Shown here piece after piece: positions 20,431 through 42,853 of a DNA stretch of 64,000 bases (position 1 is its first letter; every line of letters starts with the position of its first letter). Source of the stretch: Acidimicrobiaceae bacterium (lineage in GTDB: Bacteria; Actinomycetota; Acidimicrobiia; Actinomarinales; Actinomarinaceae); NCBI GenBank assembly GCA_028344675.1, contig JAOMBT010000002.1, positions 830 to 64,829 of the forward strand, written 5' to 3'. The position numbers and the translations under genes were made by a program. The notes under the pieces are model-generated. The model was not told the DNA's origin, ran no database searches, and saw nothing but the letters and a program-made list of their open reading frames with translations.

Positions 20431-20503
20431 TGGCCAGAGGCAGAATCGAACTGCCGACCCCTTGTTTTTCAGACAAGTGCTCTACCGACTGAGCTATCTG
20501 GCC
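20431..20503 (-). tRNA. tRNA-Phe (anticodon GAA)
   Basis: The reverse complement folds as GGCCAGA-TA-GCTC-AGTCGGTA-GAGC-A-CTTGT-CTGAAAA-ACAAG-GGGTC-GGCAG-TTCGATT-CTGCC-TCTGGCC-A. Full cloverleaf. Loop CT-GAA-AA. No encoded CCA (followed by CAA). Confidence 0.9.
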
Positions 20504-20579
20504 AGTTAGATTATTATATTACAAACAAAATAAAGAAGTAATAGAAAATTTTTCTTATTTTGTGAGGTAATCTATTTTT

Positions 20580-21356
20580 GTGAATAAAAAAATTACCATA
20601 ATTTTAAATTCTCTAAAATTTCAATCATTCAGTTTTTTAAAATATGTTTTTTTTAAGAAAAAAAGAAAACGTATTAAAAGACATGCCACAGATTATTTTT
20701 ATAATTTACCATGTATAGATTTTGATAATTGGGCTAAAGAAATAGATATAAATTTATTTAATGAGATGCAAAAATTCCAAGTACATTTTCAAGAGTATGA
20801 AACAAATTTTAATTTTACCTATTTAGGAGGAGCTCGTGGACTTAATCAGTACGGCGCACTTTATTTCTTAACAAGGTTGATAAAACCCCAAAACACTTTA
20901 GAAACGGGAGTTGCAAATGGCTTCTCATCCTATAGTTTTCTGAGTGCTATTGAAAAAAATAATTTTGGAAGATTAATTAGTAATGATTTGCCGCCATTGG
21001 ACATAGAAAAGAAAAATTGGAAATATATTGGCCAGATGGTTCCCAAAAAATTTCACAATATTTGGACATTGCATCTAGGCAGTGATCGAAAAAATTTGAA
21101 TTCAATTTGTAAAGAAAACACATTTGACTTGGCACATTTTGATAGCGATAAACTATCTTCGGGAAAAATGTACTGTATCAATACGCTATTGAAGTACAAC
21201 AAAACGTCACCTATTATTCTAATTGACAATTGTGCAGATGACTTTTTTTGGAAAAACTTAATAATAAAATCATATAAAAAAGTTGTTTTTGATCAAAACA
21301 CTAAAAGATTTGGAATCTTAATTCATAAAGATGACATTACAAATTTTCAACTGTAG
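20580..21356 (+). CDS. Class I SAM-dependent methyltransferase-like protein (Methyltransf_24 / CmcI-like)
   Basis: LGGARGLNQYGALYFLTRLIKPQNTLETGVANGFSSYSFLSAI resembles the E(I/T)G(T/V)xxGxS motif-I region of O-methyltransferase family 3. GTG start. Sits alone between tRNA-Phe and tRNA-Asp. Confidence 0.4.
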   Translation: MNKKITIILNSLKFQSFSFLKYVFFKKKRKRIKRHATDYFYNLPCIDFDNWAKEIDINLFNEMQKFQVHFQEYETNFNFTYLGGARGLNQYGALYFLTRLIKPQNTLETGVANGFSSYSFLSAIEKNNFGRLISNDLPPLDIEKKNWKYIGQMVPKKFHNIWTLHLGSDRKNLNSICKENTFDLAHFDSDKLSSGKMYCINTLLKYNKTSPIILIDNCADDFFWKNLIIKSYKKVVFDQNTKRFGILIHKDDITNFQL

Positions 21357-21360
21357 ATAG

Positions 21361-21435
21361 CGGGGACGACGGGATTCGAACCCGCGACCTCCTGCGTGAC
21401 AGGCAGGCGTGAACTCCAGACTTCACCACGCCCCC
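21361..21435 (-). tRNA. tRNA-Asp (anticodon GTC)
   Basis: The reverse complement is GGGGGCG-TG-GTGAA-GTCTGGAG-TTCAC-G-CCTGC-CTGTCAC-GCAGG-AGGTC-GCGGG-TTCGAAT-CCCGT-CGTCCCC-G. The anticodon arm is identical to the canonical bacterial tRNA-Asp. No CCA encoded. Confidence 0.85.
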
Positions 21436-21636
21436 GAAAAATTTATTCCACTTAATACTAATAGTTATTAACTATATTTAATTTATTAAAAAAATAATTT
21501 TACAAAACTGATTTTTTAATTGTTATGTACATAAGTAATCTATTTACAATTAATAGATATGGATACACAATAAAGAGGGTTATTAATACTTTCAAACTAA
21601 ATCTTTATATAGAAAAATTTATAAGATTAATATTTC

Positions 21637-22530
21637 TCAACTAGTATCTTTATTATTATTTATAAGATTTCCTAATATTCCAACAAAGATTGTCTGAATA
21701 CCAAACAGAAATAAAAGGCTAATTAGATTATCATTTTGAATAAATTTTTCATTTATGCCAGCATTAAAAAGATAAATTTGATATGAACTTATAAGAATTG
21801 AGATAAACATAAGTAAACTGCCTAATTTACCAAATGTAGAAAGTGGTTTTAATGAGGAGTAAATTATGAAAATTTGCCAAAACACTTTAAATGGATACTT
21901 TAAACTAACAAAACTGCTTCCATGAATTCTTTTGTTAAAAGTAATGGGTACCTGTTTAAATTTGTAACCTAATATAGAAGCCTCAATTAACACTTGTTGT
22001 GTGTAGTTATAATTACCTAGCATTCTAATTTTTCTTGCAAGATCTATTTTCATAGCAATGAATCCAGGTTGTGAATCTGTAATTTTATAACCCGTTAACC
22101 ATTTTGTAAGTGAACTAAAAAATTTGTTACCCACTTTTCTAATAAATTCCATTTTGTATTTTATTTCTCCATTAAATCTATCGCCATAAACTAAATCTAC
22201 TTCTTCATTTATTTCATTTAGAAGTAGGTCAATTTCTTCAAGATTATGTTGGAGGTCTGCGTCAACTTTAACAACATAATCTACCTCCAGTTTTCTTGCC
22301 TCATCGATACCGCTTTTTACCGCACTGGCTAGTCCCAAGTTTTTTTTATGACTTATTAAGAGATGATTAAGATTTGCTGTTTTAAGAATTTCGAGAGAAT
22401 TATCTTGTGATCCATCATTAACAAATATAAATATAAATTCGGGCCGTACAATTTTTTCAATATTTTTAAACAAAATTGGTAAACTTTTCGCTTCATTAAA
22501 CATAGGTATAATAATTGCAGTTTTTTTCAT
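21637..22530 (-). CDS. GT2 polyprenyl-phosphate glycosyltransferase (GtrB/ArnC/DPM1-like)
   Basis: AIIIPMFNEAKSLP...FIFVNDGSQDNSLEIL...VDADLQHN (DxD/DADLQH motifs), plus two C-terminal TM helices. This architecture matches undecaprenyl-phosphate sugar synthases. Confidence 0.8.
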   Translation of the reverse strand: MKKTAIIIPMFNEAKSLPILFKNIEKIVRPEFIFIFVNDGSQDNSLEILKTANLNHLLISHKKNLGLASAVKSGIDEARKLEVDYVVKVDADLQHNLEEIDLLLNEINEEVDLVYGDRFNGEIKYKMEFIRKVGNKFFSSLTKWLTGYKITDSQPGFIAMKIDLARKIRMLGNYNYTQQVLIEASILGYKFKQVPITFNKRIHGSSFVSLKYPFKVFWQIFIIYSSLKPLSTFGKLGSLLMFISILISSYQIYLFNAGINEKFIQNDNLISLLFLFGIQTIFVGILGNLINNNKDTS

Positions 22531-23903
22531 ACTTCCTCTTTATCAATATTAGCTAGAAAAAGTACTGCTGGAATTAATAAATGTGTTGCATATCTTGGTA
22601 TAAAGTGAGTAAAAAAAGCAAAAAATCCCCAAAGAGTGATTAAAAACAAAGAAGACAACGAGACTTTTTTATTTAGTAAATTACTTAAAGATTTTAGTAA
22701 TGCATATGGAATAAAAAACAGTCTTAAAAATGATAATACTTCTTTTACAAATAAAGAAATATTTTCAGGTAATGAGTAAAACTCGGTAAATTCAAAATTT
22801 ATAGAAGGAAATATCCCCCTATACCCAAACACCGTGCTCAACAACAAATGTTGAGAAAAGTTTTCTTTAATCAAATCAGTCGAAACAGTATTTAGAATCT
22901 TTTGCTGTTCAGTATATGTTTTAGACTCAAAACTTACTATTTCTAATCTACTTCCTACAGCACCAGTCAAATTTTTGGCCATTTTATACGAAGAGTTTGA
23001 GTTTGACCTGTCGTAAAGTATATCAGATCCAGAATCTATAACATAGCTCCAGAGGCTACCTTGTATTGAACCAAAAATAAATGGTTTAGCCGGTGTATAG
23101 AATATATAGCCAGCGAGTATTTGTTCAAAACTATTTGTACTGTATTCCGCTCTAATTGATAAAACTTCTGCTGCACGTCCAGTAATTGAAAATTCATTAA
23201 TAGTTAAATAATTTCTAGTCATCCACATTAATGATGGAAGTAGCAAAACAAGCATGACAGCAAACCATTTTTTTAAAGATTCTTTTTTATGAAAAAAATA
23301 TATCGTAAACACAAACGGTAGTAAATATAAAAATACAGCGTTGCTCAATGGCAAAATACTAAAAATAAATAAACTCCAATTTTTTTGTTTGTAATAGTTA
23401 TGAATACTTGTAGTTAATAAGAAAACAGTAATCAAGTCTTTGTATTCAATGGGAAGCATTAATAATAATGTGATTGATAATAAAATACTAAAAAATGTGG
23501 AAAAACGGCGATTTAAATTTTTAAAGATCAAAATAACAATAGAAATTTTTAATAAATAAGCCAGAAATACCAAAAGTTCTACTTCTTCATCGAAAGCGTC
23601 ACAACGAACGGATAAACAATTTTCTATAGGAATATTATTTGAAAAGTTTTGAACTCTCATTATTGAGGCAATTATAAAAGGATAAACCGGCTCACCCCTT
23701 CTGTAGCCAAGTTCTAATTTTGAATTTTCATCGATGTTGCTATTGATAACTTCTCTTTTGTATTCTCCTGAATTAAAAATTCCATAACCAATTTCCCAGT
23801 ATTGGATTTCATCACCTTCATTAGGAATTGACGCTAAGTCACTTTGGTAATTTGGAATTAGAAACAGTATTGAAACAAAAATTATAAATACTAGTTGCTT
23901 CAA
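22527..23903 (-). CDS. Polytopic membrane protein, candidate GT-C-fold glycosyltransferase (ArnT / Gtr type-specific transferase-like)
   Basis: 458 aa with >10 helices. First periplasmic-loop motif GDEIQYWEIGYGIF ([DE][DE]xxYxxI, cf. ArnT/PMT DExRYAEIA). Translationally coupled (4 nt overlaps) between the gtrA-like and gtrB-like genes. Confidence 0.45.
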   Translation of the reverse strand: MKQLVFIIFVSILFLIPNYQSDLASIPNEGDEIQYWEIGYGIFNSGEYKREVINSNIDENSKLELGYRRGEPVYPFIIASIMRVQNFSNNIPIENCLSVRCDAFDEEVELLVFLAYLLKISIVILIFKNLNRRFSTFFSILLSITLLLMLPIEYKDLITVFLLTTSIHNYYKQKNWSLFIFSILPLSNAVFLYLLPFVFTIYFFHKKESLKKWFAVMLVLLLPSLMWMTRNYLTINEFSITGRAAEVLSIRAEYSTNSFEQILAGYIFYTPAKPFIFGSIQGSLWSYVIDSGSDILYDRSNSNSSYKMAKNLTGAVGSRLEIVSFESKTYTEQQKILNTVSTDLIKENFSQHLLLSTVFGYRGIFPSINFEFTEFYSLPENISLFVKEVLSFLRLFFIPYALLKSLSNLLNKKVSLSSLFLITLWGFFAFFTHFIPRYATHLLIPAVLFLANIDKEEV

Positions 23904-24259
23904 TTCATTTCCTTTGAAAATAAAATAATTCTAATTAGGTGGACAATAATACTAATAAAAATTGTTGAAAGTACCACATACGGAAAGTACTGGCTAATTA
24001 AAGAAAAAATAAAATAATCAATTAAAAACAAAATAATATTTAGTCTTAAAAATAAAAAAAATGATGAGCTATTAATACTTCTTTTAAGCGTAAACTTACA
24101 ATGCAAAAAGTAACTCTGAAAATAAATATATATTAAAATCAATCCATAAAATAATTTGTTACTTTGATTAAAAAAATCAAAAATTAAAAAAACTAATACA
24201 TTCTTTATTAAATAGTTGAATCCAGATACTGTCGTAATTTTGATTGATCTATTAATCAT
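23900..24259 (-). CDS. GtrA-like small membrane protein (polyprenyl-P-sugar flippase family)
   Basis: 119 aa, 4 helices. SIKITTVSGFNYLIKNVLVFLIF fits the GtrA pattern (F.KF..VG.......F). First gene of a three-gene module downstream of tRNA-Lys. Confidence 0.45.
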   Translation of the reverse strand: MINRSIKITTVSGFNYLIKNVLVFLIFDFFNQSNKLFYGLILIYIYFQSYFLHCKFTLKRSINSSSFFLFLRLNIILFLIDYFIFSLISQYFPYVVLSTIFISIIVHLIRIILFSKEMN

Positions 24260-24268: not shown

Positions 24269-24341
24269 TGGGTCGGGTGGGAATCGAACCCACGACCTTG
24301 AGCTTAAAAGGCTCCTGCTCTACCGATTGAGCTACCGACCC
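24269..24341 (-). tRNA. tRNA-Lys (anticodon TTT)
   Basis: The reverse complement is GGGTCGGTAGCTCAATCGGTAGAGCAGGAGCCTTTTAAGCTCAAGGTCGTGGGTTCGATTCCCACCCGACCCA, near-identical in layout to E. coli tRNA-Lys(UUU). Loop CT-TTT-AA. No CCA. Confidence 0.85.
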
Positions 24342-24392: not shown

Positions 24393-24701
24393 TTACTCTT
24401 CCTCTTTATTTAAAAGATCTCCAACTTTATTTTTTCCATCTTCAATGAGTTCATTTAACTCATTACTTATTTTTTTTATAATTTCTTTAGTTTCTGATCT
24501 AATCTCTTCATCTTTAACAGTCTCATCTACAGCTGTTATTAGATTTTTAAGTATCTCTTTACTGTTTTCTAAAGTTAACTGAAAAGAGTCTTTAAGATCG
24601 TCAATTGAATTTTCACTTACTACCTTATCTTTTATTTTCTTTTTAATTTCTGATACATCATTAGATATCTCATCCCATGAATTATTTTGTTGGTTATCCA
24701 T
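24393..24701 (-). CDS. Small acidic coiled-coil protein, unknown function
   Basis: 102 aa, rich in E/K/D, predicted helical. No recognisable motif. Confidence 0.3.
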   Translation of the reverse strand: MDNQQNNSWDEISNDVSEIKKKIKDKVVSENSIDDLKDSFQLTLENSKEILKNLITAVDETVKDEEIRSETKEIIKKISNELNELIEDGKNKVGDLLNKEEE

Positions 24702-24722
24702 TATTTAATAATATCTATATGG

Positions 24723-25565
24723 TTAAAATTTTGCTTTATCTTTAAAAAGAAGATTTGGATTCTTATTTATCCTCTGTTTTGCCCATCTAGCTGGTGCGAT
24801 TAATCTAAAAAAAGGTGGCAAAAACGGTCTTGTATATTTTAAAAATGCAAGATTAAAACCAAGAATGAATGATTTTAATTTACTGTCTTTAACACTATAA
24901 AGTTCTTTAAATTCACTTGGGAGTGTATTGAAGGCTGTAAAAGCAATAAAAGGCCATATTGGTTTAATATGAGTTGGCACTGGACCTCCTGCAATAATTT
25001 CCTGAACATCTTTTGCTACATCGGTATAAATCAAATAGTTCCTAGTTTTAGACTTTTCAATAACCCAATTTTTTAAACCTTCATGAGTTTGTGGCATTTC
25101 TTTAATATTCACTAAAACTAAATCTGCAGAAAGCATATTTTCTTTGTGGTACTGATTTTTCTCTTCTTCAGTAAGCTTTTTTACTGTTTTTTCATAAAAA
25201 TAAATTGAAGAAATCTGTAAACAAGCATGAACCCAAAGTAACTGTTCATGATCTAAGGCATCATATATATCGCCAGTAATTTCATCAGTACCTTTAATGA
25301 CTTCATGTAATTTATTTATTCTATGAGCACTCTCATCCGCTTCTTTTTTGGTGCCAAAAGTAACAGAGTTTTGTAATGATAGGGTTCTAATTAATCTTTT
25401 CCATGGATCTCTTTGGTAAAAAGATGTTTGCCTAGCACCAGCCGCAATTAGTGGATGAGCAGCGTGCATTAAAAGTGCTCGCGCACCTCCAAAAAGTACT
25501 GTAATTTCTTTATTAACCTTCCACATCATTGAGTTTGGGCCAAAATATCCTGGATCACCATTCAT
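24723..25565 (-). CDS. DUF2236 / MpaB-family putative oxygenase
   Basis: FGGARALLMHAAHPLIAAGARQTSFY is the hallmark of the ER-bound oxygenase MpaB/DUF2236 family. Confidence 0.45.
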   Translation of the reverse strand: MNGDPGYFGPNSMMWKVNKEITVLFGGARALLMHAAHPLIAAGARQTSFYQRDPWKRLIRTLSLQNSVTFGTKKEADESAHRINKLHEVIKGTDEITGDIYDALDHEQLLWVHACLQISSIYFYEKTVKKLTEEEKNQYHKENMLSADLVLVNIKEMPQTHEGLKNWVIEKSKTRNYLIYTDVAKDVQEIIAGGPVPTHIKPIWPFIAFTAFNTLPSEFKELYSVKDSKLKSFILGFNLAFLKYTRPFLPPFFRLIAPARWAKQRINKNPNLLFKDKAKF

Positions 25566-25613
25566 ATCTTTAAATTTTAGGCTACTTTATAGTTAATATT
25601 GAATTAGAAAACC

Positions 25614-26741
25614 ATGGAATTAAATTATATAACTTATCAAGGTATTCCTAGTAATACTGCTCATGGAATACATACCTTTTCTTTAATTAAATACTTTGTA
25701 AAGAATGGATTAGATATAAAACTTGTATTTCCATTACGAGATAAGGGTGCAACTACTGAATTAACCAAGTTACAAAATCATTATGAAATCAATGAAAATT
25801 TTAAGATTGAAGCAACAAAACATTATCTTCCGTTTGGTCGAACAAAATTTCTTAAGAAATATACATATTTATTCAGTCATATTTTATGGTCTTTTTATAT
25901 TTCAAAAAAATACAAAAAAAACAGTAAAGATTTAGTTTTTACTTTGTCAGATTGGGTTTTCTATTTCTTGTCAAAAAAAAATATTAATGTAACTTACGAA
26001 TGTCACGACTTAACCGTTATTAGAAAAAAATTAATTAAGAAAGCCTTACTTTTCCCCAATTCAAAAATAATTTGCATTAATAAATTTGTCAAAGAGGACC
26101 TAGGTCTTGAAGAAAGTAAAAATGTTGTTGTATTGGAAAATGGATTTGATCATGAAGTATTTTCTCAAAAAATAAAAAAAGAATCTCCAATTAGGGTTTT
26201 GTTTGCAGGAAACTTAGAAAGATTCGGTAAAACAAGGGGTATTGAGCAAATTATCAAATATTTTTTAAAAACTAATTTTTCAAAAAAAGTCCAGCTTCAT
26301 ATCTTTGGAGGTCCTACATCACTAGTAGAAAATTTAAGACATAAATACAATCATGAGAGTTTATTTATTCATGGACATATAAAGAGATCAGAACTATCCA
26401 AAGAAATGGCAATATCTCATATTGGAGTGCTCACTAATATTGAAAGTACCCATTCACAAAGACATACTTCTCCACTTAAATTTTATGAGTACATTGGCTC
26501 GGGATTAAAGGTACTAGCTACAGATGCTTTAACACATAAATCTCTTCCGTATCAAGATTCAGTTTATTTCTTTGATTTAAATAATTTTGAAAGTTTTAAA
26601 AATTCAATTAGTTTAGCGATTGATAATATAACAAAAAACGAATCTTTAAATTATGAGAAGTCAACAATTGACTTTAGAGTTAAAGCGATTATAAAGTTTA
26701 TCTCTGCGCGCCCGGAAGGACTCGAACCCTCAACCCCCTGA
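25614..26741 (+). CDS. GT4 glycosyltransferase (WbuB-like); 3' end reads 35 nt into tRNA-Arg
   Basis: SPLKFYEYIGSGLKVLATDA matches the WbuB-type GT4 motif (PxKLFEYMAaGkPVI). The last 12 codons (ISARPEGLEPSTP) are antisense to the tRNA-Arg 3' half, so the native C-terminus may have been replaced. Confidence 0.55.
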   Translation: MELNYITYQGIPSNTAHGIHTFSLIKYFVKNGLDIKLVFPLRDKGATTELTKLQNHYEINENFKIEATKHYLPFGRTKFLKKYTYLFSHILWSFYISKKYKKNSKDLVFTLSDWVFYFLSKKNINVTYECHDLTVIRKKLIKKALLFPNSKIICINKFVKEDLGLEESKNVVVLENGFDHEVFSQKIKKESPIRVLFAGNLERFGKTRGIEQIIKYFLKTNFSKKVQLHIFGGPTSLVENLRHKYNHESLFIHGHIKRSELSKEMAISHIGVLTNIESTHSQRHTSPLKFYEYIGSGLKVLATDALTHKSLPYQDSVYFFDLNNFESFKNSISLAIDNITKNESLNYEKSTIDFRVKAIIKFISARPEGLEPSTP

Positions 26742-26780
26742 TCCGAAGTCAGGTGCTCTATCCAATTGAGCTACGGACGC
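26707..26780 (-). tRNA. tRNA-Arg (anticodon TCG)
   Basis: The reverse complement is GCGTCCG-TA-GCTC-AATTGGATA-GAGC-A-CCTGA-CTTCGGA-TCAGG-GGGTT-GAGGG-TTCGAGT-CCTTC-CGGGCGC-G. The acceptor has one G-T pair. Loop CT-TCG-GA. No CCA. Confidence 0.8.
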
Positions 26781-27912
26781 AAAAATCTAATAATTTTTTG
26801 TTTCTATATTCCCAAGAGTAGTTGGGTATATTCCTCTTAGAGTTTTCTATAAGTTGTTCTCTAATCTTTTTATTCTCTAGAAGATATTTTATTTTTAATT
26901 TAAAGTCTTCGTAGTCATCATGTTTGAAATACTCAATACCTAAACCAGAATCTTTTAGTTCTAGATTGCTTTTTATGTCTGAAGCAATAACTACAGTACC
27001 ACTTGCTGCGTATTCAAAAATTTTTAGTGGAGAAGCATAGTTTGACATGTGATAGTCATCTGGGTATGGAACTATTCCAATATCAAGGCTTTTCATATAA
27101 TCAGGAACTTCATATTTTGGTATTTTGTACAAATGGTCAAATTCGGTTTCATTATCTTGAAAATCTTCAATAATTTCATCAATTTTTTTACTAGGACCAC
27201 CAATTAAAGTTAATTTAAAATCAAAATCTGTGGAAAGTTTTTTCAATTCGTTAAATGCTTTTCTTACTCCTTTGTCCTTACCATATGTTTCTAGCATTCC
27301 AATGTATCCAATGTTTAATTTATTTGTTTTTTTTCTTGAACTTTCTTCTTTGTAGTCATTGATACTCACACCATTAGTTAAATATATTGTTTTCTCAGGT
27401 GAAAGCTTGTAAAGCTCTTTGAATGAAGTTTGTGAAGTACCAACAAAAATTACATTCTTATACTTAGAGAGTTTATTAATAACATATTTTTGAATATATT
27501 TTCCTGCTCCATGCTTTTCGTATATAAGCGTAGCTTTTGAAGACACCTGCCTAAGTAATATATTTGGGTTAGTTGACCATAGGTAATCTTCCATGCTTAT
27601 GTAGGAATTTAAATTTTTAGACCATAAATTGGCACCCAGATTCCAAATAATTTTTGTTATAAAACTCGGAAGAATTTTATAAAATCTATATTTAGTAAAA
27701 TCATAGTTTTCGACTTCTATGAAGTTTATTCTTGAATTTTTGTAATACTGTGCAGGAGATATTTCTATTGTCTTATCGTTGTTTGTTTTTGAGTAGTAAA
27801 CAGTTACAGTAGTTTTATTGTCTATAAACCCGTTAGCAATATCAATAATATGCGAACCGTATGCTTTTTCAGTTGGAAACCTTCCGTAAACTAACAGACC
27901 TATTTTTTTCAT
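26758..27912 (-). CDS. GT4 glycosyltransferase (WbuB-like)
   Basis: ASPLKIFEYAASGTVVIASD (WbuB-type motif) and GMLETYGKDKG (GT-B C-terminal domain start). Paralogous motif to 25614..26741. Confidence 0.65.
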   Translation of the reverse strand: MKKIGLLVYGRFPTEKAYGSHIIDIANGFIDNKTTVTVYYSKTNNDKTIEISPAQYYKNSRINFIEVENYDFTKYRFYKILPSFITKIIWNLGANLWSKNLNSYISMEDYLWSTNPNILLRQVSSKATLIYEKHGAGKYIQKYVINKLSKYKNVIFVGTSQTSFKELYKLSPEKTIYLTNGVSINDYKEESSRKKTNKLNIGYIGMLETYGKDKGVRKAFNELKKLSTDFDFKLTLIGGPSKKIDEIIEDFQDNETEFDHLYKIPKYEVPDYMKSLDIGIVPYPDDYHMSNYASPLKIFEYAASGTVVIASDIKSNLELKDSGLGIEYFKHDDYEDFKLKIKYLLENKKIREQLIENSKRNIPNYSWEYRNKKLLDFCVRSSIG

Positions 27913-29015: not shown

Positions 29016-29018
29016 CTC

Positions 29019-34353: not shown

Positions 34354-36338
34354 TTGAAAACCTTTACTTTTTTTAGTAATTTTCTAATTTGTTCATCATT
34401 GTAAAGATTATTTAAAGATAAAAAGCAAAGACCTATAATAATGTGTCTTGGATAGAAAAGTTCTGGATCATAAATTAGAAATGGGATAAGATTCAATAAA
34501 CCTAGAATATAGAAATCATTTTTTTGAAAAGTTCTACTCTTGAGTATTGATATTAAAAAATTTAAATTAGATAATAGAAAAATACTGAATCCTATATAAA
34601 TTATTTCTGGTCCAAGCGTCATCAATATTTTCTCATTAAAAGGGTTGATTATTATATAGTTTAAATTTTTTACGAGGTCAAAATCTAAATTTCTACCGTA
34701 GTTCCAACCAGTAGTAATCAATACAAATTCTTTTCCAAAATATAAATTATGAATTAATGGAAGTAAAAGAATTAAAAAGAAAGAAGCCCCTTTCTTAAAA
34801 GTTATATTTTGTCTGTAGAAAAATAATGTGCCTAATGCAAATAAACCAGTTTCTGGCCTAATGAGTACACCAAGTGCAAGAACGAAAACTCCTATTGTTA
34901 TTTTATTTTTTTTCAGCATGTAAATTGATATTAAAAATATCATTAGCGAACTTGCTTCAGACATTCCATATAGAAAAATATTTCTTACATTATCTGAAAT
35001 TAAAAATATTACAAAGAGAAAGGAGATAGGATTAATATTTTTTGAACATAGAAATATAAGGTTTACACACAATGAAAGCATGGCAATCCATACAACATTC
35101 CAAAAATCCCCAAAAATTAAATGAAGTGAGTAAAGAAAATATCTGTAGCCAGGAGAATATAAGAAAACACTTGACCCCCCTCTAAGTCCATCTCCTTCAA
35201 AAATTAGTCTTGCTTGATTTTCATATGTTAAGCTGTCAGATCCTCCAGGTTTAACAATTAAATCAAAAGTATTCCATGGATAGTCAATGATTATGAATGA
35301 AAGGAGTATGAAAATTTGTACGAAATTAAAGTAGGAGAATTTTGAATTGTTGAAATAGAGGTAGATTAAAAGTAAGCATAAGTAAGCGTAAATTTTTATA
35401 AATCTACTCTGGGAAATATCAAAATTGTAAATTAAAGACAAAACAAATGTCAATATAAACAAAAACAAATAATTTCTATTTATATTTCTCGTTATATTTT
35501 TTAAATTAAAAATAACGAATGCACAAATTACTATAAAGGAATAAAAATTAGTACTTACTCTCGAACCCCCGTCTTCTGTTATTACTAATTTGGCAAATTT
35601 TTCATAAGGGTAGCCACTTTTTAATGTTGGTATATGCTTAATTTTCCACTCAAGATAAGAATATTTAATCATTACATGAGTAGCATCTTTTGGTACGTCA
35701 ATAGTAACTGTATTTTCATTCCAATATCTAGTTGGTATCCCGTAGCCAGTTGAGCCATCATTAAATTTTACAGTTACTTCTCCTATGTAATTAATTTCTA
35801 ACTGGGAAGTATTTTTATCTAGCTCTTTGTAAAGTTTCATTTTAAAAGGAAGCCAATCTCGTCTCAGTTCATAAATATTAAATTTTGAGTGATTTAAAAA
35901 ACCTAAAGGAAAATTTGAAGAGTTAGCACCCAGCCATTGATAATTTTCATCAAGAGTTTTAAATTCAATTTTTTCAACTTTGTCGGTAAAAATTGAATTT
36001 AAATTGTTAAAACTTTTCGCACATGTTGAGTCGTAGTATTCATATGTAAAACTATTTTGGACAGGAGTTGAGCTGTCATCTACACAAATTAACCACAAAT
36101 TTGGTGTGCTAACTAAAAAAAATACTTTTACAAAAAATAAAATTGAAAAAAATAGATAACTTATTTTTAAATTTTTTTGTTCTATCTTGTAAATACATAA
36201 AACTAACAATAATAATAATAAAAATGAAGTTTTTGAATTATATGGGATTCCAGATAAATAACCTAAACCCTTGACTGGAAATACAACAATTATTAAAAAT
36301 AATAATTTATAAATCATATTTTTTTTTATAAAACTCAT
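34350..36338 (-). CDS. Large membrane protein: N-terminal ~280 aa extracytoplasmic domain plus a C-terminal polytopic domain related to the 36421/38120 paralogs; candidate GT-C glycosyltransferase
   Basis: 662 aa. The C-terminal half has GGSDSLTYENQARLIFEGDGLRGGSSVFLYSPGYRYF (DxxxYxxxARLI, cf. ArnT DEARYAEIAREM) followed by at least 8 helices. Confidence 0.35.
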   Translation of the reverse strand: MSFIKKNMIYKLLFLIIVVFPVKGLGYLSGIPYNSKTSFLLLLLLVLCIYKIEQKNLKISYLFFSILFFVKVFFLVSTPNLWLICVDDSSTPVQNSFTYEYYDSTCAKSFNNLNSIFTDKVEKIEFKTLDENYQWLGANSSNFPLGFLNHSKFNIYELRRDWLPFKMKLYKELDKNTSQLEINYIGEVTVKFNDGSTGYGIPTRYWNENTVTIDVPKDATHVMIKYSYLEWKIKHIPTLKSGYPYEKFAKLVITEDGGSRVSTNFYSFIVICAFVIFNLKNITRNINRNYLFLFILTFVLSLIYNFDISQSRFIKIYAYLCLLLIYLYFNNSKFSYFNFVQIFILLSFIIIDYPWNTFDLIVKPGGSDSLTYENQARLIFEGDGLRGGSSVFLYSPGYRYFLYSLHLIFGDFWNVVWIAMLSLCVNLIFLCSKNINPISFLFVIFLISDNVRNIFLYGMSEASSLMIFLISIYMLKKNKITIGVFVLALGVLIRPETGLFALGTLFFYRQNITFKKGASFFLILLLPLIHNLYFGKEFVLITTGWNYGRNLDFDLVKNLNYIIINPFNEKILMTLGPEIIYIGFSIFLLSNLNFLISILKSRTFQKNDFYILGLLNLIPFLIYDPELFYPRHIIIGLCFLSLNNLYNDEQIRKLLKKVKVFN

Positions 36339-36420
36339 TGAGTTAAAGCTATCCTTTATGTTGAAGTCATATTATATAAATTTATAGTAATGCAAATAAA
36401 AAAATTTTTGAGGAAAGTAC

Positions 36421-38097
36421 GTGGTAATAAATAAATTTAAAGTTTTTTCAATTTTTTATTTTTTTTCTTCATTAATTTTTACTTTTAGTATTGGTGAAAT
36501 TTTTTATAACTCAATTGATGGAACTGATTTCTATCGTTATTTTCGATATATTGAATATTTTAAGGGGTCGATAGAAACTACGTCTAGAGAACAAGGTTTA
36601 TTTTATTTTTGGTTTATATCATTATTTATTGACTTCTACGATCAGTATTATATTGCCGATAAATGGGAGTTTATATACAGCTCTGCTATTCAGATGGGAA
36701 ATTTTATTTTATATTTAATTGGATTATTAGGTTTATTTATTTTTCTAAAAACCAAAAAGATAAATACGACAAAAATTTTTATTTCCCTATCCTTTTTAAA
36801 CTTTTTCCCACCTGTATTTGGTGCGAGGTTAATAATGAAACCTGAGATGCTTGCATTTGCAATATTTCCCTGGATTTTGATAGGTTTAGATAAATACTTT
36901 TTAAACAAAGAAATTTCACACCTTCTGAGTGTTGTCCCACTATTGGCAATTATTGCAACAAGTAAAGGAACAGTTTTTATTTTAATAGCTTCATCACTTC
37001 TATTTATTTACTTCAACAAGATTAGAAAACTGAAATTTTTCGATATTGGAATTGCCATTACAATTTTTACAATAATGTCATACTTTCTATATCAAGAAAA
37101 TCTAAATGCTAATTCTGTAAGCATGCTTTCTCATCCAGAACTAGAGTCATATCGATATAAAGCAAGCTTTTCATTTATTTATACCCTCAGTATTAGCGAT
37201 TTATTTTTAAAACCTTTTAGGAATGTTCACGCAGGGTCTCTTTTTGGAATTACCTTTATAGATTTATTCGGGGATTACTTTAATCGGTATTGGGATCATG
37301 AAAGAAGTTTATTTATTTCTAATAGAAGAGAGGTGGTTTCATTTTTAGATTATCCAAGACGAAACATCTCAGTAATTTTTTCAATTGTATTTTTTATATC
37401 AACTTTCATAAAAGGAAAATCATTTAAGCACTCTCCATACACTAAAGTCTATTTAGTTGGTATAGCAATACTTTTATTAACATCACTTGGGGTATTTGGT
37501 CTTCACTTTAATCCAAACAAAGGAGATACAGTAAAAACACATTACTACTTCTTTTTACTAGCTTTTTCATTCATATTTATAGTTATAAAATTTTTGAATG
37601 AAACAAAACAAAAAACACATGTAATTTTTCTTATTTTTATCTTCCTAGCTTTTTCATTTATAGTTGGCTTTCCTAAAAACTATGAAGCTGATTTTAACGA
37701 GACACTGAGTGAAAAAATTTCTACAACATTAAGTTGTCGTTTCGTCAGTTCTTATTTTGAGAATATTAAAGATCTTGATATTAAGTGCTTAACAAAACAG
37801 CTTGCTACTTGTGGCTCATTCAATCAATACAATAAACCAATTGAACACGAGGATGGGTACCTAATATTTCAGGCAGATGAATTTTTTCAAAACGTTAATT
37901 TACAAGACACTGATGGAAATACGGTAACAGTTACAGGATATGCAGAATGTTTACATTATCTTGAAGGAGGGTATTTCAAAAATCAATCAGTTGATTATGT
38001 GGATAGGACACCTCCGGTCAATAGATTATTTTTGTATTTAGCCATGCTTAGTATTTTTTACATACTTTATAACAGTAGAAATAGTTTCAAAAAATAA
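36421..38097 (+). CDS. Polytopic membrane protein, paralog A (candidate GT-C-fold glycosyltransferase)
   Basis: Shares four motif blocks with 38120..39445. They are DGTDFYRYFRYIEYFKG...TSREQGLFYFW, LNFFPPVFGARLIMKPEMLAF, FGITFIDLFGDYFNRYWDHERSLF and NPNKGDTVKTHYY. There are also ~150 aa of extra C-terminal extracytoplasmic sequence. Confidence 0.4.
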   Translation: MVINKFKVFSIFYFFSSLIFTFSIGEIFYNSIDGTDFYRYFRYIEYFKGSIETTSREQGLFYFWFISLFIDFYDQYYIADKWEFIYSSAIQMGNFILYLIGLLGLFIFLKTKKINTTKIFISLSFLNFFPPVFGARLIMKPEMLAFAIFPWILIGLDKYFLNKEISHLLSVVPLLAIIATSKGTVFILIASSLLFIYFNKIRKLKFFDIGIAITIFTIMSYFLYQENLNANSVSMLSHPELESYRYKASFSFIYTLSISDLFLKPFRNVHAGSLFGITFIDLFGDYFNRYWDHERSLFISNRREVVSFLDYPRRNISVIFSIVFFISTFIKGKSFKHSPYTKVYLVGIAILLLTSLGVFGLHFNPNKGDTVKTHYYFFLLAFSFIFIVIKFLNETKQKTHVIFLIFIFLAFSFIVGFPKNYEADFNETLSEKISTTLSCRFVSSYFENIKDLDIKCLTKQLATCGSFNQYNKPIEHEDGYLIFQADEFFQNVNLQDTDGNTVTVTGYAECLHYLEGGYFKNQSVDYVDRTPPVNRLFLYLAMLSIFYILYNSRNSFKK

Positions 38098-38119
38098 AAT
38101 ATTTTAAGTATTTTCAAAT

Positions 38120-39445
38120 CTAAATTAATAAATTATAAAAGTATGATAATTGGCTAAATACTGCAGTTTTTAAATCAATATTAAATGACCATGGAAACCC
38201 AAAGATAAATATAATAATCAAAAAGTAAAGTGCAAACACTGAGTAATTAAAAACAGGCTTTCTCTTTTGAATTAATTCAATCAGTATAAAAATAAATGAC
38301 AAGGCTAATAAATGTGAATAATAATGAGTTTTAAGGGTATCTCCCTTATCAGGGTTAAAATATGTTCCAAAAAACCCATATGCCGTTAATAATATTAAAA
38401 ATATTCCAAGAAAATATGATCTTGAATATAATTTAAACTTCTTACCTTTGCTTGCAAACAATGAAAGAATAATAAATGTTAAAGAAACTAATATAGATAC
38501 ATATCTACGAACCAAATTTAAATCATAATTACTTGATTCGATACGATTTTTAAAAAAAAGACTTCGACCATGGTCCCAGTATCTTTCAAAATAGTCTCCA
38601 AATAAATCTATCAACGTTATTCCAAAAAATGAATTTCTCATATTATCTCTAAATGGGTTATTAATTAATTGATTTAGATCAAAGTTATAAATTAAACTAA
38701 AGGTAGCTTTATAGTTGTATTGTTCTACTAGTTCATGATATAAAAAGCCCACGTTATTTATTTTGTAGTCATTATAAAAAATTAATAAACATAAAACTAA
38801 AGAAGGAATAATAAAATAAATTAGGTGCATTACATCAAATTCTTTAATTTTAGGAAGAAATTTTAATATTAGAAGTAAGCTTAAAGAAGCTGTAATAAAG
38901 GCTTTGGCTGTAAAACTTAATAAAATTAATGGAATTAGATAGATAAGTTTAAGAAGTTTCTTTGATTCCAGATAAGTTTCTAAAAAGTAAATAATCCAAG
39001 GAAGAAGTGAAAAAGCCAATATTTCTGGTTTCATTATTAACCTTGCTCCAAATATTGGTGGAAAAAAGTTTAAAAAAGCTAAAACCATATAGATATCTTC
39101 ACTTTGAAACTTATAAAACCTTAGTAGCTTAAAAAAACCGAATGCTCCAAACAAATAATAAATTGTATTTGAAATTTGAATTGATATATTAATTAGCGAT
39201 TGAAAGTCAGGTAAATTAGATAATACTGATCCTATCTCTGCAACTTTATATACTGTCCAAAAATAAAAAACCCCTTGTTCTCTGGAAGTATATTCAGCAT
39301 TACCCAAAAAATATTCAATATATCTGTAGTACCTATTAAAGTCCGTCCCATTAGTAGAGTCATAAAATGTCAAACCTAAAATTATTGAAAATAATAAAGA
39401 AGAGCTAAAAATAAATTGTGAAACTCGAGTTCGGTTTTTTTTCAT
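38120..39445 (-). CDS. Polytopic membrane protein, paralog B (candidate GT-C-fold glycosyltransferase)
   Basis: Has NGTDFNRYYRYIEYFLG...TSREQGVFYFW, LNFFPPIFGARLIMKPEILAF, FGITLIDLFGDYFERYWDHGRSLF and NPDKGDTLKTHYY. Convergent with paralog A. Confidence 0.4.
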   Translation of the reverse strand: MKKNRTRVSQFIFSSSLLFSIILGLTFYDSTNGTDFNRYYRYIEYFLGNAEYTSREQGVFYFWTVYKVAEIGSVLSNLPDFQSLINISIQISNTIYYLFGAFGFFKLLRFYKFQSEDIYMVLAFLNFFPPIFGARLIMKPEILAFSLLPWIIYFLETYLESKKLLKLIYLIPLILLSFTAKAFITASLSLLLILKFLPKIKEFDVMHLIYFIIPSLVLCLLIFYNDYKINNVGFLYHELVEQYNYKATFSLIYNFDLNQLINNPFRDNMRNSFFGITLIDLFGDYFERYWDHGRSLFFKNRIESSNYDLNLVRRYVSILVSLTFIILSLFASKGKKFKLYSRSYFLGIFLILLTAYGFFGTYFNPDKGDTLKTHYYSHLLALSFIFILIELIQKRKPVFNYSVFALYFLIIIFIFGFPWSFNIDLKTAVFSQLSYFYNLLI

Positions 39446-40260
39446 ATTATTACAATCTATATGTGATATTAATTACTAAATTAAAGATATTCATCGCAAA
39501 ATATTTGTTAATTTTCATAAGTTTTTTTAAAAATATAGACATCAATGAATTCACCCGTAAGGGGATAAAGTGGCACACTCCTCTTAATGATATCGTAGGT
39601 TTAAGTCTGTATCTTTTAGGAAGTTTTGAAAAGCATAATGTTAAAAAAGTAAGTAAGTACATAAACAATGGGACAACTGTAATCGATATTGGAGCAAATA
39701 TTGGCACATTTACCATTGGTCTTTTAAAAAGATGCCCAGAAAAGATTGAAAAAATAATTTCCTATGAACCTGAAAAAAAGAACTATAAGAATCTCAAGAA
39801 AAATATAAAAGAGAACAACCTGGAGTCAAAATCAGAAGCCTTCAACAAGTTTGTAGGGCTTGGCAACGTAGATAAAATAACAAGCAACTATCCTCTCATA
39901 CATAAAGGACCTAAGGTTCAAAATATTTACTATGGGCTAAAGGGAGACTATAAAGGTGTTCAATCTAGTAATTTGGATGAGATTAATTTCGATGCAAATA
40001 AAAATTATTTTATAAAAATAGATGTTGACGGATACGAAGCTGAAGTCATGTCAGTAATAAATAAAAAGTTAAAGTTTCGACCGACTATTTTAATTGAAGT
40101 TAATAAAGTATTGTTGGATGAAATAGAAGTAGAATATTTAGTAGAAGTGTTTGAAAAAAATAATTACAAATTTGTTTATTTTGGTAAACAACTTTCACCA
40201 AAAATTATATTAAATGATTTTCGAAAAATTGGATTAGATTTGATAGCAGTTCCTGTTTAA
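39418..40260 (+). CDS. FkbM-family methyltransferase
   Basis: VIDIGANIGTFTIGLLKRC (the DxGAN.G SAM motif) and NYFIKIDVDGYEAEVM (the IKIDVEG motif). Confidence 0.75.
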   Translation: MKLEFGFFSYYYNLYVILITKLKIFIAKYLLIFISFFKNIDINEFTRKGIKWHTPLNDIVGLSLYLLGSFEKHNVKKVSKYINNGTTVIDIGANIGTFTIGLLKRCPEKIEKIISYEPEKKNYKNLKKNIKENNLESKSEAFNKFVGLGNVDKITSNYPLIHKGPKVQNIYYGLKGDYKGVQSSNLDEINFDANKNYFIKIDVDGYEAEVMSVINKKLKFRPTILIEVNKVLLDEIEVEYLVEVFEKNNYKFVYFGKQLSPKIILNDFRKIGLDLIAVPV

Positions 40261-40311
40261 AAATTTAATAATTGTTTACGTATATATAACATGATTAATA
40301 TGGAAGTTATT

Positions 40312-42387
40312 ATGAAAGTTTTTAGATATATATTATTTATTTTCATTGTTTCATGTGGCAATAATAATGAAAGTGGACTAACAGTTGTCTCCACTTCATT
40401 ACCACCTGCAATTGACACACCCTCTACTTCATTGTCAACTACAACAACTTCAGTAACCACAACCACAGTTGTAACTTATGATGGCTGTATCCCCGAGGAC
40501 AATCAGAGTGTTAATTTTAATGATTTAAAGAATGTTCAAAATTTTCTTAATAGATATGGATTTGATGCTGGAACTGAGGATGGCCTATCAGGCAACCAGA
40601 CTCGAGAGGCTGTTAAAAGATTTCAAGCATACGTTGGCATCACAATAGATGGAGATTTGGGACCAACAACATATGGAAAAATGAATTCATACACTGGTTG
40701 TGAGGAAAGAATAAATGAGTATACTTCCTCTCCTACTTCAACTACTTCAACAACTATTATCAGTGAAGAGAATACAACCGAGTCAACTACTACAACAACT
40801 ACTACAATCCCCGTAACAACTACTACAACAGTGATAGCTACCACCTATGATTATGGATTTCAAGGCATGGTTTCTCCTGAAAGTGGGAACTTCGCTGATA
40901 TTTTAACTACTCAAAATGAAAACAACACCTTTTGTTCAAACATAGCACCGTTGTACGGTGAACAAAATCAACGAACTGATCTCGGTTTCCCTAGTATTTA
41001 TAACCTATACCCATCTCCACCATCTCTAACTTCGGGTGTTTCAACACAGATATCTTCGAATACTTCCTCAACATTCACAGTTGAAGTTAACGGAAATGGG
41101 GATGAAAATTTTAAGTTTTATTTTATTGAACCCTTTACTTCTTCATACAAAACTTTAGATCCAATAAGTATTTCAACCAGTAGTGGACTTACTAAGGCAA
41201 CTTTTAATAAAGATGGCCTGACTCAGGGTTATTGGTTCTACGGATATGCTGATAATGGTTCTGGGGGAATAGTTAAAGCCGATGGTTTACGAGAATTTTT
41301 AGCTGGACCTCCAATAGTTCAAAATGATGTAAATATTAGTTCTTTTGATAATGTTTGGCTTCACACCTCAGAAAATTTGATAAGTAACGGTGAATTTGTT
41401 GCAAATAATTCTGAAATGTATATTACTTATATTATGGATACAGGATTCAATTCATTTTCAACAGTATCTAACGAAATAAATACAACAACAACCTCAATAA
41501 CAGTTGTAAGTGATAGTAGTTATGCAGTTGGTGATATTGTATTACTTGATAACGAATTTATGTTAATTCAAGAGATTTCTAATCAGACTCTTACCGTTGA
41601 AAGAGGATATCGTAACTCTCTACAACAAATTCATGGTATCGGAACCGCTGTGCAGAAATTAATTACAGACACAGATATGAAAGCCGTGAGAGGTTATGCA
41701 CTTTTTAAAGGTGAGAAAGGATATAGTTTTTCAGTTTCACTTGGCAAGGAAGGTGTGCCAAATAAGTTTACAATATCTGACTCCTGTCCAAAAGATTTAT
41801 ATTCACTTGATTTTATAAAAGTTTATTCATGGAGAGAAAAGGGTGAATCAACAGCAAGATCTATTGATGCTGGTAGAGGTGATGTAAATATCGCTAATGA
41901 TAAATTTACTTTATATCAAGGGATTCAGGATTATATATTTCCCGACATATTTGCTTCAGATCCAAGTAATGGTCAGTTTTTAAATCTCGGACCTAGGGAA
42001 GCAACTTACTCTGCAGGAGATACAATTAGCTTTGATTTTGCTGGAATAGTCTCTGGAAGTAATGAAATTAAATATATTGAATTAGAATTCGACATGTTCC
42101 CTACTGGTTCAAAAGCAACAGCTTCAAGAAAAATTATTTTTACTCCAAATAATAATGAATATAAGTACACCTCATCCATCTCTTCAGTATCTTCGACACC
42201 AATATTTACTAACAATGTGTGGGAAAGTGGATATAGGTATGTTTTAAAGCATGTAAAGATAAATGATGGTGTATCTGAATTAATATTTAAAAATAATAGT
42301 GAATTAGAAAATGTAACGCTCGGAACCAAATCAACTCACAGTGTTTATTATCTTGACCAGTTTGCTTTTACAATCAGCAACAATTAA
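40312..42387 (+). CDS. Thr/Ser-rich lipoprotein with a peptidoglycan-binding (PG_binding_1) domain and a large C-terminal domain of unknown function
   Basis: The MKVFRYILFIFIVSCG signal carries a lipobox (IVS-C). LQNFLNRYGFDAGTEDGLSGNQTREAVKRFQAYVGITIDGDLGPTTYGKM is the PG_binding_1 consensus. It is flanked by SSPTSTTSTTII...TTESTTTTTTTIPVTTTTTVIATT linkers. The track start 40291 is probably over-extended. Confidence 0.6.
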   Translation: MKVFRYILFIFIVSCGNNNESGLTVVSTSLPPAIDTPSTSLSTTTTSVTTTTVVTYDGCIPEDNQSVNFNDLKNVQNFLNRYGFDAGTEDGLSGNQTREAVKRFQAYVGITIDGDLGPTTYGKMNSYTGCEERINEYTSSPTSTTSTTIISEENTTESTTTTTTTIPVTTTTTVIATTYDYGFQGMVSPESGNFADILTTQNENNTFCSNIAPLYGEQNQRTDLGFPSIYNLYPSPPSLTSGVSTQISSNTSSTFTVEVNGNGDENFKFYFIEPFTSSYKTLDPISISTSSGLTKATFNKDGLTQGYWFYGYADNGSGGIVKADGLREFLAGPPIVQNDVNISSFDNVWLHTSENLISNGEFVANNSEMYITYIMDTGFNSFSTVSNEINTTTTSITVVSDSSYAVGDIVLLDNEFMLIQEISNQTLTVERGYRNSLQQIHGIGTAVQKLITDTDMKAVRGYALFKGEKGYSFSVSLGKEGVPNKFTISDSCPKDLYSLDFIKVYSWREKGESTARSIDAGRGDVNIANDKFTLYQGIQDYIFPDIFASDPSNGQFLNLGPREATYSAGDTISFDFAGIVSGSNEIKYIELEFDMFPTGSKATASRKIIFTPNNNEYKYTSSISSVSSTPIFTNNVWESGYRYVLKHVKINDGVSELIFKNNSELENVTLGTKSTHSVYYLDQFAFTISNN

Positions 42388-42447
42388 AAGTTATCAGAGA
42401 GAATCTAAACTTTTAAATAATTTGTACGTTTTATGTGCGTTTGAGCT

Positions 42448-42623
42448 TTATGGCCCTCCAGGTAATGACTCACAAGGCTCACCGTCATTATCTCCATCTA
42501 GATTTGCAACATCTCCATAGTATGGAAAATAAGTATCGAACCAATTTTTAGCTTCTGAATAGTTAGCAAAGTCTCCACAATTTTTTGTATCTCCAATAGA
42601 AAGAATGACTTTAATGTTAGATA
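42448..42623 (-). pseudogene. Excalibur (extracellular calcium-binding) domain fragment without a canonical start
   Basis: The minus-strand translation ...SIGDTKNCGDFANYSEAKNWFDTYFPYYGDVANLDGDNDGEPCESLPGGP* contains the Excalibur DxDxDGxxCE motif and the CxDF start. The frame opens right after a TAA and has no ATG/GTG/TTG. Confidence 0.35.
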
Positions 42624-42779
42624 ATTATGGAGTAGATATGGTTTATCACGACATCATATCAATATTAATTTTTTCAACTGTCATCTATTTAGTTTATAGG
42701 CTTTACAAAAGGTTTTAATTTTTCTACAAAATGTGGGCTTGAGTGGTTTTTTGTAGGGTATATTTCTGAAAAACCCTTG

Positions 42780-42853
42780 TGGGCGCTACAGGATTTGAAC
42801 CTGTGACTTCTTCCTTGTAAGGGAAGCGCTCTGCCGGACTGAGCTAAGCGCCC
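42780..42853 (-). tRNA. tRNA-Val (anticodon TAC)
   Basis: The reverse complement is GGGCGCT-TA-GCTC-AGTCCGGC-AGAGC-G-CTTCC-CTTACAA-GGAAG-AAGTC-ACAGG-TTCAAAT-CCTGT-AGCGCCC-A. No CCA (followed by CAA). Confidence 0.85.

Follow-up and report, generated by a model that had tools for sequence, protein, structure and literature searches.

Probable turnover of envelope-glycan cassettes at tRNA genes in a genomic island of 'Candidatus Actinomarina'

Why are five tRNA genes dispersed among cell-envelope glycan genes in a streamlined marine bacterium, and are these genes exchanged at the tRNAs? The question is raised by a stretch of 64,000 nucleotides, referred to here as the window (positions 830 to 64,829 of contig JAOMBT010000002.1, assembly GCA_028344675.1, Acidimicrobiaceae bacterium), in which an earlier note, made from the sequence alone, had described tRNA genes interleaved with glycosylation cassettes. 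The window covers part of the flexible genomic island (fGI1), or hypervariable region (HVR), of 'Candidatus (Ca.) Actinomarina', in which tRNA sites very probably promote the turnover of genes by integration and recombination. This is carried by the organism, the identity of the island, the variability of the slots between the tRNAs, the repeats, arms and integrase element found in relatives, and one exact cassette swap. The five tRNAs are essential host genes embedded in the island, not cargo. Turnover of cassettes in the tRNA-studded glycosylation island of Actinomarina is already published, and the window adds confirmation. The details added are that scars occur at tRNA-Phe and tRNA-Val only, that a swap is bounded exactly by tRNA-Asp and tRNA-Phe, and that a candidate integrase element exists, which could make the published question of the integration mechanism testable. 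The susceptibility of abundant ocean bacteria to phages, and the persistence of many lineages side by side, are believed to depend on glycan islands; judging from the literature, phage pressure may select for glycan diversity. Turnover of the island is also relevant to marine population genomics, the genome having been reported without mobile elements.

Exactly five tRNA genes were found in the window, all on the minus strand and with ARAGORN and Rfam RF00005 in agreement: tRNA-Phe(GAA) at 20431-20503, tRNA-Asp(GTC) at 21361-21435, tRNA-Lys(TTT) at 24269-24341, tRNA-Arg(TCG) at 26707-26780 and tRNA-Val(TAC) at 42780-42853, the last being the proximal boundary of the island in the window. All five passed the covariance-model threshold (60.8-75.3 bits; gathering score 29), and no further tRNA or Rfam family was found within the 64 kb. 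Inspection of the sequence bore out the statement of the earlier note that none of the five encodes CCA. The note had also seen the same ACAA in place of CCA at three of the genes. This trailer is present at Phe, Lys and Val, where the discriminator A is followed by CAA (Asp reads G|CTA and Arg G|CAG), and no special meaning attaches to it: the A is the discriminator base, the C after it is part of an attachment (att) core that is repeated in relatives, and the later bases are abutting DNA. Element-occupied tRNA sites in relatives read ...GGCCA-CCA.

Five tRNA genes in 22.4 kb compare with 0.9 expected (Poisson P(>=5) = 0.0023), the expectation being taken from about 44 tRNAs per ~1.1-Mb Actinomarina genome (Nielsen and Lui, 2026; bioRxiv 10.64898/2026.04.03.716425). 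The sequence of tRNA-Phe was invariant in 41 of the 41 relatives that have the gene, tRNA-Lys had at most one mismatch across 51 loci, and tRNA-Asp had 0-2 mismatches across 42. The locus might be regarded as a static glycan operon of a streamlined genome, its tRNAs clustered by chance or for transcriptional convenience: dispersed tRNA genes are frequent in small genomes, and those found here are housekeeping tRNAs, identical across species. The clustering is nevertheless five-fold above expectation (P ~0.002), and the content of the locus varies widely between and within species. The comparative data presented below refute this explanation, which is left with practically no probability. Import of the tRNAs by a phage or island was likewise considered and was rejected on the strength of their identity or near-identity across species, together with the single-copy state of the Asp and Phe tRNAs (Lopez-Perez et al., 2020; PMC7771536).

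Only one flexible island, fGI1, has been described in 'Ca. Actinomarinales', and it is conserved throughout the group; it encodes envelope polysaccharide, measures 43-79 kb, has 28% GC and lies at a conserved chromosomal position, 85-90% from dnaA (Lopez-Perez et al., 2020). In that study five tRNAs inside fGI1 were found to be targets, or hot spots, of cassette insertion, and the Asp and Phe tRNAs to be single-copy. Direct repeats of parts of tRNAs at the ends of recent cassettes were a mark of recent insertion, not of every island, and a group of four tRNAs can come to lie in the interior of the island after rearrangement. The tRNA-bounded HVR was confirmed in 84 complete Actinomarina genomes, in which Phe, Arg, Lys and Asp were named at one boundary of the HVR and the integration mechanism was stated as yet to be identified (Nielsen and Lui, 2026). 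The word integrase is absent from both papers.

The window agrees with this description in its organism group, its low-GC (~28%) envelope-glycan genes, its five internal tRNAs, its cassette-wise variation in content between strains and species, and the tRNA-fragment repeats of its relatives. It differs in that its group of four tRNAs is interior, that its Asp-Phe slot holds a species-specific gene and that fresh scars are missing, none of which is an essential difference; the repeat of part of a tRNA at a cassette end was found in relatives, for Phe and Val, and not in the window. At least 42.8 kb of the island are held by the window, and the distal boundary lies outside it. Positions 1-42.4 kb form a continuous cell-envelope glycan region by Pfam, and genes of core metabolism begin at 42.9 kb. 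The per-module GC comparison proposed in the earlier note separated the two: the glycan modules have 26-29% GC, and the core flank (42.9-64 kb) has 34.6%. The view of the tRNAs as landing pads in this island, put forward in the note, coincides with the published conclusion for the lineage (PMC7771536).

Two samples of relatives were compared with the window. The first comprised 53 loci from a species-level genome collection, retrieved with the PF09995 protein as query (74-95% identity), and the second about 15 metagenome contigs of the same species, obtained by exact-protein look-up. The fetched loci span 10 kb on either side of the anchor gene; gene-family maps were made by our own calling of open reading frames (ORFs) and BLAST clustering, and tRNAs were predicted on all loci. 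The host was Ca. Actinomarina/OCS155 for nearly all of the 53 loci, in single-cell or metagenome-assembled genomes (MAGs). Five Actinomarina loci (L020, L030, L045, L049 and L051) lie inside MAGs named Alphaproteobacteria, Gammaproteobacteria, Pelagibacter or Flammeovirgaceae, probably through binning contamination.

The usual order of genes is arginyl-tRNA synthetase, WecG/TagA, tRNA-Arg, a family 4 glycosyltransferase (GT4), an optional Wzy-like pair, PF09995, an optional acidic protein and tRNA-Lys, followed by a Bac_transf priming transferase, tRNA-Asp, tRNA-Phe and the hypervariable region. The synteny Arg-GT4-PF09995-Lys-...-Asp-Phe is common to the window and its relatives. An ancestral array of five contiguous tRNAs, as imagined in the earlier note, was not recovered. 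Only Asp and Phe are tightly linked (in 38/42 loci, and in every species except the window's own, they are 5-7 nt apart; a gap of 857-858 nt is confined to the window and conspecific contigs); Lys, Asp and Phe are contiguous in three species; Arg and Lys are parted by PF09995 in every locus; and Val is a separate site. The gap between Lys and Asp is about 50 nt in those three species; in most it is about 1.5 kb and holds the Bac_transf gene, and in the remainder it measures 2.4-5.5 kb and is occupied by other genes. Between Arg and Lys, PF09995 was present in 53/53 species loci (74-95% amino acid identity), in most with a GT4-family ORF beside it, and the distance between these two tRNAs is about 2.3-2.5 or 4.6-4.8 kb in most loci, with three outliers at 3.9 and 5.5 kb. 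The Lys-Arg block is quasi-core and not itself a variable cassette.

Other parts of the locus vary among relatives. The DNA distal to tRNA-Phe is hypervariable, and in the window's clade the DNA proximal to tRNA-Arg is island too, reaching tRNA-Val at a distance of 4.9, 7.7 or 16 kb (three genomes with both tRNAs on the + strand of the locus). The gene triad found between Asp and Lys in the window occurs among species representatives only in L001, at ~77% nucleotide identity, and is as divergent as its flanks. The GDP-sugar operon, which in the window lies between Arg and Val, is found after the acidic protein in L003, L005, L011 and L031; in L010 it is on the distal side of Phe. Relatives thus differ in the sizes and gene families of their slots, which was the test proposed in the note. 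The Lys, Asp and Phe tRNAs are missing after the acidic protein in the close relatives L003, L005, L008, L011 and L031; in L008 a short membrane-protein ORF follows the acidic protein, after which the contig ends, and in L011 tRNA-Val is inverted. These five arrangements suggest rearrangements between tRNA-adjacent sites.

In relatives, scars of integration were found at Phe and Val alone among the five tRNAs. For Phe they are direct repeats of 42-45 nt, which correspond to tRNA positions ~31-73 and are situated on the distal side of the intact gene; 23 of the first 59 loci have them, seven in two copies, and they recur in the conspecific contigs L061-L064. Repeats of the 3' end of tRNA-Val (43 nt) were present in two loci, L004 and L011. 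Before most Phe repeats lies a conserved arm of ~150 nt (e.g. L001:14588-14776, L054:15169-15358 and L060:29-148), in which there are paired short tandem direct repeats, the inverted repeat GCTCA..TGAGCGA and, likewise conserved, a AATAAGTTA..GGTTTGCC stretch; the short direct repeats match within each element and differ between elements. Both Val repeats carry an arm of their own, similar in design to the Phe arm. A second 'tRNA-Phe' of 79-82 nt, called by ARAGORN in 8 relatives, was rejected as a real gene, being an element arm fused to the 3' repeat.

The distribution of the repeats bears on the possibility that all five tRNAs are bacterial attachment sites (attB) and that every module arrived by site-specific integration, its repeats having since decayed. 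The published wording, in which five tRNAs are insertion targets (PMC7771536), favours this, as does the variation of the Lys-Asp and Val-Arg slots in size and content. Across the fetched loci, however, partial repeats occur at Phe and Val only, the Arg-Lys block is conserved in every species, the gene between Lys and Asp is the conserved Bac_transf gene in most, and the insert between Asp and Phe has no duplicated tRNA segment. We consider five attB sites unlikely. In the same way, the proposal that every spacer between the tRNAs became a landing pad was overstated, with partial repeats at two tRNAs in relatives and none in the window.

Within the window's species four states of the Phe site were observed: empty (the window), an arm-only insert of 0.3 kb (L054/L061), a four-gene cassette of 2.2 kb (L062/L063) and a larger element (L055). 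Along the 14 kb that align, the L055 locus is ~96% identical to the window, and in the 7.8 kb nearest the tRNAs the identity is 100%. Directly after its tRNA-Phe (L055:15019-20843) lies an element with an excisionase-like (HTH_17) and a primase/helicase-like (AAA_25) gene; the locus stops before the expected position of the integrase, and the size of the element, ~9 kb, was estimated from L060. The latter is a contig of 9116 nt with a helicase 94% identical to that of L055. The ends of L060 are tRNA-Phe fragments (positions 31-58 and 51-73), with the arm within the first 148 nt, and it encodes a tyrosine integrase of 384 aa (PF00589, E=1.3e-19; phrog_1, E=1.9e-56) as well as HTH_17 and AAA_25 proteins. 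Neither capsid, terminase nor other packaging-related genes were detected by PHROGs in L060 or L055. In L043, a C-terminal remnant of an integrase abuts the arm and repeat. Scans of viral contigs with the 43-nt tRNA-Phe core and with the AAA_25 protein gave zero matches, that is, no free phage or phage-type attachment site (attP) copy, and no description of the L060/L055 integrase element was found in the literature searched. The insertion mechanism, unclear in the earlier note, is still without an integrase in the window itself; it is no longer wholly unclear, given an element at tRNA-Phe in a conspecific and a relative with a tyrosine integrase.

An integrase-less mini-cassette of 0.6-0.7 kb, consisting of a gene for a 127-aa membrane protein, the arm and the Phe repeat, was found in five species (L001:14113-14776; L017, L034, L048 and L052). 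Its nucleotide identity is 98-99.6% in four of the carriers and ~91% in the fifth (L048), while the adjoining GT4 and PF09995 genes are 70-81% identical. This contrast indicates that the cassette has spread recently between species.

Exchange without scars was evident from alignment of the window with its conspecifics. Against L054, identity is 98-100% up to ~21,650, followed by an indel of ~115 nt in the spacer before tRNA-Asp; it drops to ~65% in an interval bounded exactly by the tRNA-Asp 3' end and the tRNA-Phe 5' end, and returns to 99-100% beyond Phe. The stretch of low identity holds the methyltransferase gene of the Asp-Phe slot, whose allele in L054-56 has 58% amino acid and ~65% nucleotide identity. 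Since the breakpoints of the drop lie at Asp and Phe, one cassette has been replaced with the two tRNAs as borders. The insert runs from the Asp 3' end to the Phe 5' end, with no duplicated tRNA segment. A scan for promoters and terminators around Asp-methyltransferase-Phe showed no excess over shuffled controls. A second step in identity, from 100% to ~90%, was located at ~29.4 kb, within the epimerase gene, against L054 and L058, and at ~28.4 kb against L057. The conspecific profile is a mosaic, with 100% identity for 29.4-21.6 kb and ~90% for 35.5-29.5 kb and the step in the epimerase or the GDP-mannose dehydratase gene. The position of the step inside the epimerase gene indicates that conserved sugar-nucleotide genes are also anchors.

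These data could be taken to describe a purely recombinational replacement island of the classical O-antigen or glycotype kind, changed by homologous double crossovers between conserved flanks and with the tRNAs as passive landmarks. The methyltransferase swap, the mosaic profile of identity and the scar-free window are all in keeping with this. Recombination alone does not account for the repeats, the arms and the integrase element, for mini-cassettes that are nearly identical across divergent species at tRNA-Phe, or for a remnant of a Val arm in the window, and we regard it as very improbable.

The remnant of the Val-type arm lies at 42330-42452 on the minus strand (nhmmer, E=4.6e-7, 29.5 bits, ~1.1 Mb searched). 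It is degenerate, resembles the sequence that precedes the tRNA-Val repeats in L004 and L011, and overlaps the end of a PG_binding_1 gene; no tRNA-Val repeat follows it. Next to it, on the side towards tRNA-Val, a C-terminal fragment with an Excalibur domain and no start codon is found at 42448-42620 on the minus strand (PF05901, E=9.2e-5; 23.2 bits, cut-off 22). Together, arm remnant and fragment (42330-42620) look like a decayed cassette beside tRNA-Val. At the other site, the Phe flank of the window, AATAAACAT, equals the flank that follows the repeat copy in L054, and the window's tRNA-Phe is a putative empty attB of the tyrosine-integrase element family.

Next to the Phe flank, at ~20157-20172, the window is without 2.49 kb that is present in all conspecifics shown (8 of the 21 carrying the protein). 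The missing DNA comprises genes for an MBOAT and an ALGX-like protein as well as the 5' part of the gene for a 252-aa methyltransferase, of which an ORF of 153 aa is left at 19699-20160. The microhomology at the junction is ~7 nt only.

Several observations weigh against turnover at the tRNA sites. No partial-tRNA or other att-like repeats were found at its module boundaries by blastn-short with the five tRNAs or by a direct-repeat search, and so the repeats of tRNA 3' ends that the earlier note had suggested looking for are missing; the searches gave only tRNA-to-tRNA cross-matches and chance AT-rich pairs. A profile search found no copy of the Phe-type arm in the window. No integrase or transposase was detected there either, as the note had said (Pfam on 56/61 ORFs, and tblastn with the integrase of the lineage's element). 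Apart from one degenerate arm match, we infer site-specific integration in the window from its relatives. Among all fetched loci, no partial repeats of the Lys, Asp or Arg tRNAs were found. The action of the integrase on the 43-nt core is putative, and L060 could be an integrated or an excised copy. Some breakpoints lie beyond the tRNAs, which may be one class of conserved anchor among several. Finally, the first entry of the methyltransferase gene into the 5-nt spacer between Asp and Phe is left unexplained by the routes proposed below.

Turnover at tRNA sites, which we favour, very probably takes two routes. In the first, the 3' 42-45 nt of tRNA-Phe and tRNA-Val would serve as attB for elements with a tyrosine integrase; the players would be elements of ~9 kb with integrase, excisionase and primase-helicase genes, and small integrase-less cassettes sharing the ~150-nt arm and presumably mobilised in trans. 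Each insertion would leave an intact tRNA on the proximal side and the arm with a partial repeat on the distal side, and would push older material outward. In the second route, homologous recombination would use the near-invariant tRNAs, conserved neighbouring genes and sugar-nucleotide genes as anchors and would leave no repeats. The window would then represent a quiescent state, with the Phe attB empty, one decayed cassette at Val, and the Asp-Phe, Asp-Lys and Arg-Val slots filled by glycan genes unlike those of relatives. The interpretation of the earlier note is thus partly supported: that the tRNAs are hot spots for the turnover of glycan cassettes was right in spirit, and it was wrong in detail because there is no ancestral array of five tRNAs and scars occur at only two of the five.

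A more specific proposal is that the island is built by a previously undescribed system resembling the tycheposons of Prochlorococcus, with autonomous elements of ~9 kb at the 3' 43 nt of tRNA-Phe, a sister type at tRNA-Val, and single-gene cassettes mobilised in trans that spread between species. The non-autonomous cassettes would keep only the ~150-nt arm, with its paired direct repeats, and the att core. We put this forward tentatively, as quite possible though somewhat short of probable. The islands of Prochlorococcus are seeded by tycheposons; in that model the seeds are tRNAs, and the vectors are integrase elements that stay only transiently (Hackl et al.; bioRxiv 10.1101/2020.12.28.424599). 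The two systems share a streamlined marine host, islands that abut tRNAs, partial-tRNA repeats of ~40 nt, tandem accretion, elements of ~10 kb with a tyrosine recombinase, an excisionase and a primase/helicase, and island DNA that for the most part is without hallmark genes. They differ in host phylum and target tRNAs. The window holds no such element, and the likeness is one of function (integrase, HTH_17, AAA_25). The cargo of the Actinomarina island is mainly envelope-glycan genes and membrane proteins, in place of nutrient-uptake genes. Neither a recombinase nor a ~40-nt partial-tRNA flank was found in the window; in relatives both occur (the integrase of L060, the remnant in L043 and the repeats). 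With phage-inducible chromosomal islands and related tRNA-targeting elements, L055 and L060 share the integrase/excisionase/replication module and insertion at a tRNA 3' end; they differ in that packaging-related genes were undetected in both by PHROGs.

Glycotype, or O-chain, replacement islands, of which the O-chain cluster of Pelagibacterales is an example, resemble the present island in being hypervariable, low-GC clusters for envelope polysaccharide at a conserved position and in their use of homologous recombination. In glycotype islands the whole cluster is replaced, whereas in Actinomarina small cassettes are exchanged at internal tRNAs (PMC7771536 and the present data). An integron-like system was also considered and rejected: the window has no IntI and no attC-like repeated element at the cassette boundaries, and the cassettes of relatives end in tRNA-derived repeats.

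The gene content of the window was assigned by Pfam scans, which covered 56 of its 61 ORFs with a length of 100 aa or more; the other five, of 102-124 aa, are nested in longer ORFs. The glycan region as a whole includes several GT4 and family 2 glycosyltransferases (GT2), PMT_2/GT-C-like proteins, NeuB with a cytidylyltransferase, FkbM and other methyltransferases, and many multi-pass membrane proteins. Its distal part (1-20160, GC 27.8%) runs off the left edge of the window and encodes a PMT_2/GT-C-like protein, three GT4, SIS, PhyH, SDRs, NeuB, a CMP-sugar cytidylyltransferase, an aminotransferase, a GINT1_N-like protein and an FkbM methyltransferase. Except for the 2.49-kb indel, this part is 99.7% identical to the conspecific contigs L061-L068.

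The module contents given in the earlier note held up with one reservation. Between Phe and Asp there is a single methyltransferase gene (20580-21356, plus strand; PF13578, E=1.6e-9), which fills the 857-nt slot and has its stop codon 4 nt from the 3' end of tRNA-Asp. The Asp-Lys cassette (21637-24259, minus strand) consists of a GtrB-like GT2 (21637-22530; PF00535, E=4.7e-20), whose C-terminal part has two membrane segments, and two proteins with predicted membrane segments, of 458 aa (22527-23903) and 119 aa (23900-24259), all on the minus strand. The note had called this a gtrB/GT-C/gtrA triad. When tested as a gtrABC-type triad, the GT2 was confirmed, and the other two proteins are compatible with it by size, order and topology only; the GT-C and GtrA (flippase, PF04138) labels found no Pfam support, these two and other membrane proteins having zero matches even at E<=5. 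The Lys-Arg block (24393-26741, both strands) contains, as described, an acidic protein of 102 aa (minus strand), the oxygenase-like PF09995 protein (formerly DUF2236; 24723-25565, minus strand) and a GT4 (25614-26741, plus strand). The Arg-Val block is indeed of 16 kb and includes five multi-pass membrane proteins. It begins with a GT4 (26758-27912, minus strand), followed by the GDP-sugar operon (27981-33860, plus strand) with genes for GDP-mannose 4,6-dehydratase, an epimerase/reductase, a 141-aa protein, a DegT aminotransferase, a GT2, a methyltransferase and a protein with ten transmembrane segments. The remainder (33868-42387), which has about 90% identity to the conspecific contigs, encodes membrane proteins with lengths of 161, 662, 558 and 441 aa; it also holds the genes for an FkbM methyltransferase (39418-40260) and for a secreted PG_binding_1 protein of 698 aa (40291-42387).

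The core flank (42902-64000) encodes an FAD oxidoreductase, class I ribonucleotide reductase, enzymes of fatty-acid synthesis, PPDK, isocitrate lyase and malate synthase. Exact-protein look-ups with the small subunit of the ribonucleotide reductase and with the GINT1_N-like protein returned no record. Near the genes for fatty-acid synthesis, a protein of 565 aa (48429-50126, plus strand) joins a biotin carboxylase to a C-terminal biotinyl/lipoyl carrier domain.

The gene for tRNA-Arg(TCG) is overlapped by the 3' ends of both flanking GT4 genes, by 35 nt in antisense and 23 nt in sense. The antisense GT4 takes its last residues (...ARPEGLEPSTP) from the complement of the T-arm and acceptor stem. 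The 35-nt overlap is present in 13/45 loci, and in most of the others the stop codon falls exactly at or just before the tRNA. The sequence of tRNA-Arg(TCG) diverges fast, with 0-13 of its 74 positions differing from the window copy across Actinomarina species (L001-L059).

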